Virus record (IMG/VR): IMGVR_UViG_2693429700_000011
Coordinates: 1 to 4,893 of that record
Reading direction: 5' to 3' (one strand)
DNA: 4,893 nucleotides
Origin: a virus
Lineage: Duplodnaviria > Heunggongvirae > Uroviricota > Caudoviricetes
Made by a program: the position numbers and the translations under genes. Positions 93 through 4,179 of this stretch are shown in pieces. Under the pieces are notes generated by a model. The model worked only from the letters and a program-made list of their open reading frames with translations. It had not been told where the DNA came from and made no database searches. Positions within the stretch are counted from its first letter, which is position 1; each line of letters begins with the position of its first letter.

Positions 93-2798
93 TTACCTCT
101 TTCTCAGGGAGTTTAGTCTCCAGGATTTCCGGGGCGGTTCAAGTAGCCTTGCTGCATCGGTATTGTTTTGCAGTGCCGCGTGAATATTTTTTGCCTGTTC
201 ATACATCTCCGGACTGATAAACGTTTTCCCGGCATTTTCTTCTTGCTGGCGTTTTTGCCAGTCCTCCAGTGTCACCAGTTCCGGGCGAATTTTCCGTGCG
301 ATTTCGGTTAATTGCTCTTTTGTGCCACTGATGTTGTAAGGCAAAGATTTAGCACGTTCTTTTTTTGCCAGTTCTGGGTCTACAGTTTCAATTTGATCCA
401 GAAGCTGCTCCCGTGCTCCACTGGTTTTCAACAGAGGAGGGAGGCTTGCGTTGTATTCTTTAATACAGGCTTTCATTGCTGATGCTGTGTGTTTTTCCCC
501 CTCAGGAATACGCCGAAATTCCACCGGAAGCGAACCGTAAAGGATGCCTGTTTCTTCGGCCCCGGCACTTACAGACAGTGGCTGTATAAGAGTGCTGTTG
601 TAGCTTTCGATCCACTCTTTCATCTGCTCTGGTGTCATCAGTGCTGGCAGACTGGCATTGTGTTTTTTAATGATGGCGATCAGTTCGCTAGAAGTAGTAA
701 CCACATATTCAGGAACCGGTACCGGAATGGCATATTCATCAGCGAATTTATCCGTTTCCAGAACATAGCTGTGAATGATCCGCCCACGCAGCAGTGCATC
801 ACTTTCCTCGTTCGGAATAGTTCCGGCAATGTGCCGTCCGTGGTAATACATCAGGCTGATACGGGCATCCTTCAGCATCGTGCTGCTTATTCCGTTGGCG
901 GAGTGATAAACCTCGTTCGGGAGGTTTTCATAGCGGCCAGGCTCGAAATATGACGGCCACATGATTTCAGTTGCTACAGGAGCTGACGCTTCACCAGTTT
1001 CATCACTGCAATCACGATGCGGATCGCTGCCAGCATTCTCATTGTGCGGATGTTCAGCGCCTTCCATTTCCTCCGGATCATTTTCCTTAGCTTCAACCTG
1101 ATTCTCTTCATCGAATGTTTCCTGGTATGTTGCGTCGCCCATCACCGCACCACAGTCAGGGCAGTTATCCCCGCCAGTCTGACCGCAGGCATTGCAGACT
1201 ATTTCCGGTTTCTGTTGCACTACTGGCTCAGGTTGTTTCACATCCGGGCTGGTTTTTACAGTTTCTGGCGTGTTTTGTTTCGTTTCTGGCTGGTTCTGGT
1301 ACACAGAGTCGCGAGTCTGGATCCCCTTTACCCATTTCGGATCGTTCGGGTCGCTAATTCCGTCAACAAATTCACCACGTGATGCAGCAAGCAATTTATC
1401 GGCATCGACAGGATTTTTTGATGGAATGTTTTTCCGGGCTTCATGGAGTTCTGCCCGCAGTTTCTGATATTTCGCATCAACAGAATTTACCTGTGACTGA
1501 GCATCCAGCGGCTGCGTGTCCTGATGATGTTCAGTTGCATCCGGTTCCACTGTTTCAGCCGTTGCCTGTTTATCTGCCATTGCGCAAGATGGTTGCGGTT
1601 TTTCTTCACCATCGTGTTTTCCTTCTTCTGTTACACGCTGCGGCATTGGGGCAGAGGAACGACCGCAGGCAATATCCACGATTTCCGGATCAGGGTTGGC
1701 ATGATCGGTTTCAATCAGCACCTTGTTCAGATATTCAGTGACATGCGCAGGGATAACCTCGATCCCAATTGGTGCTTCTTTTACGGACGCAACCACGATG
1801 GCGCGGGAATAATCCAGCCCGCCAGGCATGGTGATGAATTTGTCGCGGAAAACAGAAAAGGGCGGTTTATTTTCAGAGATAATTTCCTCGACACGTTTAG
1901 CGTGTGCCGGATGAAGGTTATAAATGTCCACGTCCATTGAACGGGCCAGGACGCCAGTGGCTACGTCGCGCGCCAGTGACGTCAGATCGTGAACGAAACC
2001 TTCGCCGCGATCGGTGAGGTTCCCGCCGCCAGCATTAGCGCCGGAAGCCGTGCGCGTGATGCGTGAAACACGATTTCCTTTCATCCACTCTTTTGTCAGC
2101 AGACCACGATCGGTGTAGTCTGCGTCCAGGTATGCTTCGAAAAAAGCAGTCATCAGCCCCAGGCTTGAATTGCCTGGATTAGGGAAAACTCTGTCAGTAT
2201 CACGCACCAGTTTGTGGAGATCGCGAATTTCCAGCGGGTCGAGCAGGCTGGTTTTGTGGGAAACAGCCAGGGCAGTAACAGCTGGTAGTTCTTCAGCTCG
2301 TGCAATGTGTAATGCCTGGAGTTCGTCGCGTGAAACGTGCGTTACCGGTTTTTCGCTGCCGTGTTGAGCAAGCCAGCGAATGGGCAGCTCCTGACCGGAA
2401 ATCGGGAGTAGCATATTCTCCTCAATCTCCGTCATGTCTTCGCCATTAACATTGGTATTGTCAGTGCTGGCTGGTTTGTCCTGCGCAGAGGATGAGGGCG
2501 CGATAAATACCATTGTGATGCCATCTTCCCCGCCTTTTTTGTAACGGTTGCAGAATTCCGTATCAAATACGCCCTCTGGTGGAAGGTCATCAACAACGGG
2601 CAAATTGACGCGAACAGGTTTTTTAAAGTCATCTTCATCGTAGCCAGCATCGTCAATCGCAACAGCACCACGGGATATGGCAATGGATAATTTTTTCGCT
2701 TCAGCCCAGTAGAAACCGCCTTTAATACCGAGACGTTTTCTTACTTTGTCATTTTTTGCTTCGTAATACAGTGGGTAAACTTGTTTATCGGTGCTCAT
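93..2798 (-). CDS. recE: RecE-like exodeoxyribonuclease VIII (Rac prophage type), 3' end interrupted by IS insertion; ORF is a recE-IS chimera and probably non-functional
   Basis: 901-aa ORF from the track. ATG at complement 2796-2798 with GAGG about 11 nt upstream. Internal sequence ([45 protein letters not shown]...[27 protein letters not shown]...) matches E. coli RecE as I remember it. Synteny with racC, ydaE and kilR supports the call. The frame crosses the IS junction at 141/142, so roughly the last 15-16 residues and the TAA stop (93-95) are IS-encoded. Confidence 0.85.
105..141 (-). repeat. Terminal inverted repeat (IRL) of the IS3-family element; inner boundary approximate
   Basis: Outermost ~37 bp of the element starting with TGAACCGCCCC on the minus strand. 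The right-hand copy is outside the window, so the IR length cannot be measured here. Confidence 0.55.
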
Positions 2799-2867
2799 TG
2801 TTTTTTTAACCTCAACTTAGATTAAAATTACTGCGAGTGATGAATAAATGTCCCAGGTTCTTCACTC

Positions 2868-2900
2868 AGGCCTGCACAGTGTGCAGGCTTTCTTTTTTTT
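2868..2900 (+). terminator. Intrinsic (rho-independent) terminator-like hairpin plus T-tract, oriented on the plus strand, antisense to the racC-recE operon
   Basis: Perfect 8-bp GC-rich stem GCCTGCAC (2870-2877) / GTGCAGGC (2881-2888) with loop AGT, extendable by flanking A-T and G-U pairs. It is followed directly by TTTCTTTTTTTT (2889-2900). On the minus strand the hairpin is preceded, not followed, by the A/T run, so it is not a terminator for recE-direction transcription. Confidence 0.5.
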
Positions 2901-2928
2901 CAGATTTCACCCTTTGATTTCATTGCAA

Positions 2929-3174
2929 TCAGAGTTGCCAGAAATTCGGCTTTTTTTCTGCGGGCAGATTCTTTCCGATATGCACCAGGCACATTTTTTT
3001 GACGCCTTCGTTAAGTGTTTTAACGTTGCCTGATGGACCGTCGATATCAACCACAGTGAAAGGGGTTTCTTTATTTTCTGTTTTAATCACGTAGCCAATA
3101 CGCTTTCCTTCCAGGCTGACTTCGTGAACAATGTCATCAGTAGTAACAACAGTGGCTTCATAACTGGTAATCAT
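2929..3174 (-). CDS. racC: RacC (Rac prophage small protein), 81 aa
   Basis: Track ORF 2929-3222 contains MITSYEATVVTTDDIVHEVSLEGKRIGYVIKTENKETPFTVVDIDGPSGNVKTLNEGVKKMCLVHIGKNL..., matching RacC as I remember it. I place the start at the internal ATG (complement 3172-3174) because AAGGAG sits 6 nt upstream; the longer track ORF would translate through this RBS. Confidence 0.7.
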   Translation of the reverse strand: MITSYEATVVTTDDIVHEVSLEGKRIGYVIKTENKETPFTVVDIDGPSGNVKTLNEGVKKMCLVHIGKNLPAEKKPNFWQL

Positions 3175-3248
3175 GTTTTTCTCCTTAATTAAGGTTGAGC
3201 GAATCCCTGCCATTGCTGGCATAAACTCAGTTTCGGATAGTCAGTTAA

Positions 3249-3419
3249 TTAAAGTTCGTGTGCCATCTGGTCTTTTTCGGCACAGATTTCACTACAATAT
3301 TTTTTCATTTCCGTCGTTGGTATAACTCCACGCATGAAATGAAGTGGTCTTGTAATGATTTTGCTTTCTTCAATTTCTTTATTGCAAAGGTGATAAGCAC
3401 ATTTTATTTTCTTAGTCAT
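3249..3419 (-). CDS. ydaE: YdaE-like small Cys4 (putative zinc-binding) protein, 56 aa
   Basis: Not in the ORF track (too short). Hand translation of the minus strand gives [56 protein letters not shown] with stop TAA at complement 3249-3251. It has C-x4-C ... C-x3-C spacing and sits between racC and kilR as in Rac. The ATG overlaps the kilR stop. Confidence 0.65.
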   Translation of the reverse strand: MTKKIKCAYHLCNKEIEESKIITRPLHFMRGVIPTTEMKKYCSEICAEKDQMAHEL

Positions 3420-3640
3420 TACCATGACTCCGCCTTTACAGGTAAACCATCACGACCGAGGAAGACTCTAATCATGCAGTCAGAAATGCATGTTTTTGTA
3501 GTCAGGCTACGAATATAAAGTTTTCGCTTTTTAATATTGTTTGCCGAGGCGATATATGTCCGACCTTCATGAAGAACATAATCGCCAGGGGTCACACACT
3601 GACGTGGTATTTCATCAGTTCCGAAGTGATGAGCAATCAT
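3419..3640 (-). CDS. kilR: KilR (Rac prophage killing protein, cell-division inhibitor), 73 aa
   Basis: Track ORF 3419-3652 reads [78 protein letters not shown] place the start at the second ATG (complement 3638-3640) because GGAG lies 7 nt upstream of it; the first ATG would consume that RBS. The stop TAA (3419-3421) overlaps the ydaE ATG. Confidence 0.7.
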
Positions 3641-3661
3641 AATTATCTCCATTTTTACAAA

Positions 3662-3810
3662 TGAATTTTGTCGATGCGGTGCCTGGTGCCTCCAGGTGAC
3701 GTTAACCAGTTAACAATTAACGCCGGATACAGAGAATCCACCCATAACACTGTTTTTGGTTTTAACTGTTCCGCGTGCGCTTAGCCGCATTCACCGCATC
3801 ACAAAATTCA
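3662..3810. repeat. Long-range imperfect inverted repeat (19/20 nt arms) enclosing about 110 bp in the kilR-sieB spacer
   Basis: Left arm TGAATTTTGTCGATGCGGTG (3662-3681). Right arm 3792-3810 is CACCGCATCACAAAATTCA, whose reverse complement is TGAATTTTGTGATGCGGTG. The arms differ by one extra C. The enclosed segment contains a local hairpin CCTGG-TGCCT-CCAGG (3682-3696) and a tandem GGTGCCT GGTGCCT (3678-3691). Confidence 0.6.
3700..3722. repeat. Cluster of three (G/A)TTAAC motifs forming a CGTTAAC...TTAACG palindrome; candidate protein-binding site
   Basis: CGTTAACCAGTTAACAATTAACG: GTTAAC at 3701-3706 and 3710-3715, ATTAAC at 3716-3721. The outer 6-7 nt are reverse complements of each other. 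It lies 60-80 bp upstream of the kilR start codon on the kilR-sense side. Confidence 0.35.
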
Positions 3811-4179
3811 CTTTAAAAAGGGCGGCAGAGCAGCCACGGAGTAAAACTGATACCGCCAAACGTCACCAGAAAATTGATAACAGAGGGCGTTGCAGCGGGG
3901 TTGTCACTTAAGCGTATGGTCAACCTGACAACCCGGTGTCCTCAAGGGGAAGGAATAACCCCGCCATACTTACCGCCGCGCCATTTCGCGGAGTGCCACA
4001 ACCGGAAGTGCACGGTCGAATTAAATTTAACGACATCGTACAGTGAGACGAACTTCGCCGTGTGCTTTCGTGTTGTGTGCCTGTCTTTTTACCACTTCAG
4101 GCTCGGTGGTCTCGGCTATACCCCTACAGCGAGAGTCTGTGATAGCATTTTGATACCCTTACAGTAGAGAGTTATTAAT

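Follow-up and report, generated by a model that had tools for sequence, protein, structure and literature searches.

A plus-strand intrinsic terminator in the racC-recE spacer of a Rac-like prophage, and the small antisense RNA gene that it may close

The stretch of DNA analysed here (the window; 4,893 nucleotides, IMG/VR record IMGVR_UViG_2693429700_000011) is a segment of a Rac-like prophage, and its sequence is 99.9% identical to that of E. coli ML35 over positions 2600-3300 and 99.3% identical, with 8 gaps, over positions 128-4089. The genes recE (start at 2798), racC, ydaE and kil form a run on the minus strand, in which recE and racC are separated by a spacer of 101 bp (2799-2899). A first-pass annotation, made from the sequence alone, had described this gene context, and the list of open reading frames agrees with it. 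The same annotation had stated that no plus-strand gene ends in the spacer, and this holds: the sole plus-strand ORF (2848-3033) is unconserved and reads through the terminator that is the subject of this work. A small plus-strand protein was considered and rejected, given that the ORFs on this strand are not the same from allele to allele, continue past the terminator and have no Shine-Dalgarno sequence. The features of the spacer and of its borders are collected in Table 1.

Table 1. Positions of the features in and around the racC-recE spacer of the window.
Feature	Position	Strand	Basis
recE start codon (2796-2798) and Shine-Dalgarno sequence GAGG (2810-2813)	2796-2813	-	inside block conserved between alleles
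Candidate -35 hexamer TTGTTT, overlapping the recE start codon	2798-2803	+	predicted
Candidate -10 hexamer TAAAAT	2823-2828	+	PWM scan; predicted
Predicted upstream stem-loop SL1, GAGUGAUGAA...UUCUUCACUC	2835-2867	+	folds; same layout in K-12 and L186
Putative small antisense RNA against the recE leader, about 62-65 nt	2835-2897	+	3' end from K-12 data; 5' end predicted
Terminator stem-loop SL2, 10 bp, loop AGT	2868-2890	+	sequence, consensus scan, fold, covariation
T-tract TCTTTTTTTT, 9 T in 10	2891-2900	+	sequence, scan; T-rich tail in all variants
racC, frameshifted pseudogene in the window; stop codon 2900-2902	2900-3174	-	two ORF fragments; frameshifted in the ML35 annotation

Some features of the surrounding genes were also recorded. 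The racC region (2900-3222, minus strand) consists of two ORF fragments that overlap, 2929-3222 and 2900-2992, with the break close to a T/A homopolymer run at about 2952-2960, and racC is annotated as a frameshifted pseudogene both in ML35 and in O157:H7 493/89. The recE ORF of the window stops at position 93 (901 aa), ML35 annotates a longer recE (3126 nt), and no alignment to ML35 exists for positions 1-127 of the window; recE is thus either mosaic or disrupted at its 3' end in the window. As far as known RNA families are concerned, Rfam gave no match at 2799-2928 at E ≤ 1, the matches in the window being located elsewhere: upstream of kil, on the minus strand, there are a full match to DicF at 3820-3871 (75 bits, E 8e-16) and an STnc100-like match at 3633-3818. 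The prophage of the window keeps this intact DicF beside a dicB remnant. KilS (b4833), a small RNA of the Rac prophage of K-12, looks like a decayed copy of DicF, because it overlaps a sub-threshold DicF match (39 bits; locus L216, 5911-5966, minus strand).

The hairpin that lies next to racC (SL2) has the sequence AGGCCTGCAC-AGT-GTGCAGGCTT and is made of ten pairs, six G-C, three A-T and one G.T, with a loop of three nucleotides. It folds with an energy of -16 kcal/mol, and only one of 200 shuffled sequences folded as well. The T-tract starts directly 3' of the stem; counted from 2889 it comprises 11 T in 12 positions, which is the figure given in the first-pass annotation, and its last T already belongs to the stop codon of racC, as base one of the complement (tca, 2900-2902). 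In a consensus scan, the SL2 site ranked top among the terminator-like sites, on the plus strand only. Since the lenient scan as a whole was not enriched (6 sites observed vs. 5.7 expected), strict thresholds were set at ≥8 bp of stem, ≥5 G-C pairs and ≥8 T in 10. With these thresholds SL2 was the sole site on either strand of the window, and any site at all was found in just 3 of 300 dinucleotide-preserving shuffles. The hairpin and the T-tract exist and are not a chance feature. In RNA made from the window allele, the 3' end would be expected at about 2895-2899.

On its minus-strand side the stem continues as CUGAGUGAAGAACC, and a U-tract is absent. The site shares with bidirectional terminators between convergent genes the plan of a GC-rich hairpin set between an A-tract and a T-tract, but differs from them in that one side only is T-rich, the minus-strand side reading CUGAGUGAAG, and in that the flanking genes are co-directional. 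A bidirectional terminator was therefore rejected, because the stem is followed by a U-tract on one strand only and the minus strand has no terminator-like site here.

Two kinds of IMG/VR scan, one with the conserved block at the recE start and one with the hairpin, gave 25-33 distinct spacer variants. Homologues of RacC are confined to Rac-like prophages, and for this reason the sample has no deep phylogeny. The terminator hairpin and the T-tract are kept in 33 of 33 distinct variants, so that the conservation of the hairpin across racC-recE junctions, which the first-pass annotation had left to be checked, extends to every junction sampled; a T-rich tail comes right after the stem in each of them (TCTTTTTT, TTTCTTT, TTTTTCCCATT and others). 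In the alignment of 25 variants, 96.4% of the cells at the ten stem pairs are paired, as compared to 18-42% in slid controls, and two-sided changes are found at three pairs, 78-100 (AU/UA), 86-92 (AU/GC) and 87-91 (CG/UA). The observed pairing and covariation scores were each reached by none of 500 shuffles, statistics which overstate the support, the variants being closely related prophages and not independent lineages. It holds all the same that two alleles with flanks about 40% identical keep the stem by compensatory changes. Among near-identical prophages the hairpin loop is found in both orientations, CCATA vs. TATGG in the K-12 type and AGT vs. ACT in the window type (window 2878-2880; K-12 locus L002, 3987-3991; loci L103 and L011). 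This pattern fits the loop inversion that would be expected at a palindrome by template switching.

Several observations bear on the question of which strand is under selection. The T-tract lies on the plus strand only. Among the 25 variants, single-sided changes in the stem mostly give G.U pairs on the plus strand, which correspond to C.A mismatches in the sense RNA; these plus-strand G.U pairs are found at pair 79-99 (n = 12), at pair 85-93 (n = 4, in both allele types) and at pair 86-92 (n = 1). The exceptions, which favour the minus strand, are one single-sided change (locus L118) and the loop-closing pair of K-12, and both concern the loop-closing pair. The consensus energy calculated by RNAalifold is -15.8 for the plus strand vs. 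-8.1 for the minus strand. In 29 of 33 distinct variants, greater stability is found for the plus-strand RNA, the mean difference being 4.3 kcal/mol; for the K-12 allele, the energies of both strands nearly coincide (-24.7 kcal/mol for the plus strand vs. -25.3 kcal/mol for the minus strand). This tally would favour the plus strand, in a manner that is suggestive rather than decisive.

Homology to K-12, as detected by megablast, breaks at about 2894; in a direct alignment, the K-12 spacer is found to be 101 bp long as well and to have the same build. The block around the start codon and the ribosome-binding site of recE is nearly identical between the window and K-12, while the middle of the spacer is strongly diverged. 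The K-12 hairpin, TAGCCTGCG-CCATA-CGCAGGCTA, is followed by TTTCTTT and occupies the same place beside the racC stop. Among the Term-seq 3' ends listed by Adams et al. (2021; eLife, PMC7815308, Supplementary file 1) there is one on the plus strand at position 1417486 of MG1655, assigned to the class 'antisense racC'. In NC_000913.3, recE occupies 1414786-1417386 and racC 1417488-1417763, which places this end within the spacer, at a distance of 2 nt from the stop of racC. The sequence at this end reads ...TAGCCTGCGCCATACGCAGGCTATTTCT, and the surroundings are TCTTGCCGGATACACACTGTTCATAGCCTGCGCCATACGCAGGCTATTTCT on the near side of the end and TTCAGATTTC on the far side (PMC7815308); the 3' end was taken as the 51st base of each printed sequence, a position calibrated on the row of sgrS. 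It corresponds to a U five bases beyond the K-12 stem, inside the K-12 T-tract. The site is entered three times in the supplementary file, which has one sheet per growth condition, and two of its rows give 185,664 and 146,140 reads, more than every non-tRNA plus-strand entry among the rows listed (e.g., sokC with 66,698 and sgrS with 6,222). Among the same rows, no other plus-strand 3' end is present between 1411575 and 1417486 (PMC7815308).

These data show that the K-12 counterpart makes an abundant plus-strand RNA 3' end in growing cells, in which the recE operon is silent. The first-pass annotation had proposed a rho-independent terminator on the plus strand, antisense to the racC-recE operon, and had named plus-strand 3' ends in Term-seq data and a terminator prediction with free energy as the ways to check it. 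Stem, T-tract, scan and fold energy bear the proposal out in the window, as does Term-seq in K-12, where the transcript ends within the U-tract in vivo; this last evidence pertains to the K-12 allele, not to that of the window. Compared with K-12, the window allele has, to judge by its letters, a better U-tract and an equally good stem. A plus-strand intrinsic terminator in the racC-recE spacer is well supported.

Upstream of the hairpin, the best plus-strand sigma-70 candidate found in K-12 by the PWM scan is TTGTTT-N18-TAAAAT; the distance between the two hexamers is 19 bp in the window, 18 bp in K-12 and 17 bp in the diverged L186 allele. TAAAAT is placed about 7 nt before SL1 and is kept in all 33 variants. 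It is also invariant in every Rac-type sequence found by means of the hairpin alone, and the bases just downstream of it vary freely. On the opposite strand, the ribosome-binding site of recE begins a short way downstream of TAAAAT. Considering, however, that the candidate promoter overlaps the ribosome-binding site and start codon of recE, its conservation is ambiguous and could reflect recE translation alone. Two further features of this region concern recE. The T-run located between its start codon and its Shine-Dalgarno sequence (window 2799-2806) varies from 5 to 7 T among variants, and therefore its length changes both the distance from the Shine-Dalgarno sequence to the AUG and the -35/-10 spacing (17-19 bp). 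The sense leader (window 2799-2830, minus strand) contains a weak hairpin, UUUUAAUCU...AGGUUAAAA, which pairs the Shine-Dalgarno region of recE and is conserved in K-12; with or without the antisense RNA, this hairpin may keep recE translation low.

The stem-loop SL1 is kept in all but one of the 33 variants. Its sequence differs between alleles and its pairing stays: the outer pair is G-C in the window and C-G in K-12, and in L186 one G-C pair is changed to A-U and one mismatch to a pair. The two adjacent hairpins, SL1 and the terminator, gave z values from -4.5 to -5.2 in the window, K-12 and L186 alleles. When the 15-mer of the SL1 loop was searched in IMG/VR, it was found in Rac context only, the other matches being chance ones in unrelated genes. 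Transcription from the candidate sigma-70 promoter TTGTTT/TAAAAT would start near 2835, about 7 nt past the -10 hexamer, and would give an RNA of about 65 nt consisting of these two hairpins. Such an RNA would be complementary to any read-through mRNA, since it lies within the spacer of a run of co-directional genes. The first-pass annotation had suggested that the terminator might serve an antisense RNA overlapping the recE start; the K-12 3' end agrees with the termination of an antisense RNA, but the overlap is not supported: the predicted 5' end at about 2835 precedes the Shine-Dalgarno sequence when read in the sense direction, and the RNA would cover the leader only. An entry for racC or recE was not found in the SMRT-Cappable-seq supplements, and no match for the site was found among the entries listed in the TERMITe supplement.

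In strain VL40 another gene is found in place of racC. Here the ribosome-binding block of recE is intact as far as AACTCA, and the spacer is only 23 bp long and lacks TAAAAT, SL1 and the terminator. Therefore, the RNA module goes together with racC and is dispensable for recE. The two spacer types and the two recE 5' types are found recombined in all four possible ways (e.g., loci L011 and L076), and a promoter shared by every one of these recombinants would have its only place in the conserved block. This block, about 30 nt around the recE start (window 2790-2830), acts as a mosaic joint (loci L011, L076 and L215). On the sense strand of the K-12 spacer (L002, 3906-4009), the 7-mer AATCTGA occurs at the racC stop and again just upstream of the recE Shine-Dalgarno sequence. 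The two copies bracket the RNA module of about 80 nt and could be the trace of an insertion or deletion of the module, or a coincidence.

As regards previous descriptions, NC_000913.3 annotates ralA and kilS in Rac and no RNA in the racC-recE spacer. The main text of Adams et al. (2021; PMC7815308) does not mention racC or the Rac prophage, and among open-access full texts none was found that pairs racC or recE with a small RNA, an antisense RNA or a terminator, or that prints the hairpin sequence. The terminator is an element of an ordinary kind, that of a prophage antisense RNA, and the RNA marked by it appears to be unannotated. Shinhara et al. (2011; PMC3175480) validated five prophage small RNAs, including ECS025. 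This RNA is intergenic and prophage-encoded, has a predicted sigma-70 promoter, measures 60 nt by sequencing and about 65 nt by northern blot, increases upon cold shock and does not figure in the set of transcripts reported there as reduced in the hfq knockout. The size of ECS025 matches that of the RNA predicted in the racC-recE spacer, and the two may be the same RNA, the match being one of size.

In our reading the element is a working Rho-independent terminator, and we consider it on balance probable that a small autonomous RNA gene, contained entirely in the racC-recE spacer, has its 3' end here; that the terminator closes a small cis-antisense RNA gene is moderately supported. It is rather unlikely that the terminator is a backstop without a dedicated gene, which would stop pervasive antisense transcripts arising from spurious promoters in the AT-rich recE and recT and keep them from running into racC-ydaE-kil and the immunity region. 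The start site of the RNA is indeed only a predicted one, there are several weak promoter-like plus-strand sites inside recE, and the terminator works in the plus direction only, with all the upstream Rac genes on the minus strand. Yet the 3'-end signal of K-12 is very high for spurious transcription, and the long interval before it holds no further plus-strand 3' end among the rows listed (PMC7815308). Furthermore, SL1 and the -10 hexamer are conserved alongside the terminator even where the 5' coding sequence of recE has been swapped. A shield from convergent transcription, which the first-pass annotation had put forward, is thus possible but less favoured, because the upstream hairpin and the -10 element are conserved together with the terminator.

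The first-pass annotation had also pointed to a hairpin in the sense mRNA. That the selected function resides there, as a stability or processing hairpin after the racC stop or as a control of recE translation, with the T-tract and the plus-strand 3' end as by-products, seems improbable to us. The part of this claim that stands is that the sense RNA, too, can fold into the stems (-20.8 kcal/mol in the window allele and -25.3 in K-12); the element is moreover located exactly at the racC stop, travels with racC, and has in its neighbourhood the weak leader hairpin sequestering the recE Shine-Dalgarno sequence. What this function leaves unexplained is the T-tract, because a T-rich tail on the plus strand, that is an A-tract in the sense RNA, is present in every variant, the diverged ones included, and a sense hairpin needs none, and likewise the mid-stem changes that keep a G.U pair on the plus strand only and leave a C.A mismatch in the sense RNA. 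For the sense strand the consensus energy is the weaker one, and the K-12 plus-strand RNA is present while the operon is silent. We also give little credence to a trans-acting prophage small RNA, the product of a moron-like gene, which would have targets in the host or in other phages and overlap the recE leader incidentally. The autonomous layout of promoter, RNA and terminator, expressed from a silent prophage, would suit such an RNA, and so would the U-tail of the window allele, which has at least 8 U, as in Hfq-binding small RNAs; there are, besides, small RNAs already on record for Rac (RalA and KilS), and DicF is present in the window. The U-tail of K-12, however, is short (UUUCU), and the body of the RNA is strongly different between alleles, with no conserved seed evident. 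In addition, racC and recE are both absent from the RIL-seq-derived small RNA tables of Bar et al. (2021) that were searched. The best complementarity elsewhere in the window is 10 nt long, which is about chance level, and a trans target inside the window was rejected on this ground.

The cis-antisense RNA that we favour would be fully complementary to the racC-recE intercistronic leader and would probably act in cis when the early-left operon is transcribed. It might form a duplex of about 65 bp with the read-through mRNA, which would be cleaved by RNase III, or the promoter and its polymerase might act by occupancy at the recE translation start; by either route, recE-recT expression would be uncoupled or damped relative to racC. 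By analogy, recE is probably under cis-antisense control of the kind exerted by lambda OOP on cII or by P22 sar on ant. OOP is an antisense RNA of 77 nt that acts via RNase III cleavage of the duplex. With it, the spacer RNA would share the character of a short antisense RNA of a lambdoid prophage, made independently of the lytic operon and ended by a strong intrinsic terminator, as well as the overlap with the end of one gene and the intercistronic region of the opposing operon. The two differ in position (cII-O as compared to racC-recE) and have no sequence similarity, and the putative RNA described here overlaps no coding sequence, its start and its effect on the target being predictions. 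P22 sar is an RNA of about 68 nt transcribed against the operon direction from a promoter inside the arc-ant intercistronic region, and is very similar in size and in its layout of a small gene inside an operon spacer. However, sar covers the ribosome-binding site of ant, whereas the predicted spacer RNA leaves about 22 nt between its 5' end and the Shine-Dalgarno sequence of recE, and sar has no homology to the spacer RNA.

The likeness to toxin/antisense-RNA pairs that the first-pass annotation had drawn was not upheld, there being no small toxin ORF opposite the RNA and RalR/RalA being located elsewhere in Rac. This type I pair belongs to the same prophage and includes an antisense small RNA annotated in K-12 (ralA, b4714), but RalA is 179 nt long and overlaps the coding region of the toxin, whereas the spacer RNA would be complementary to the leader only. 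A type I toxin-antitoxin pair in the spacer was rejected, as the opposite strand holds only the recE leader and no small ORF that is conserved between alleles.

A retron toxin-antitoxin defence is triggered by RecE, and its toxin is blocked by RacC, according to the report of Bobonis et al. (bioRxiv 2020.06.22.160242). A device that uncouples racC from recE would be biologically meaningful, because RacC and RecE are the blocker and the trigger of retron toxin-antitoxin systems. It may be speculated, as a distant prospect, that a constitutive antisense RNA of about 65 nt sets the RacC:RecE ratio and serves the phage as a counter-defence dosing device that travels with racC. If this were true, cleavage or uncoupling of the mRNA exactly between racC and recE would dose the blocker of the retron against its trigger.

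Rac is among the most studied cryptic prophages, and recE and recT are the basis of recombineering. The curated K-12 record is without an RNA in the spacer, despite the presence there of one of the stronger plus-strand 3' ends of the Term-seq table, and the interest of the site rests on the unannotated RNA marked by the terminator, not on the terminator itself. In practical terms, constructs with the native recE leader would also carry the candidate promoter and the terminator. A small antisense RNA gene at this place would add a regulatory layer to recE expression, and would bear on the balance between RacC and RecE.
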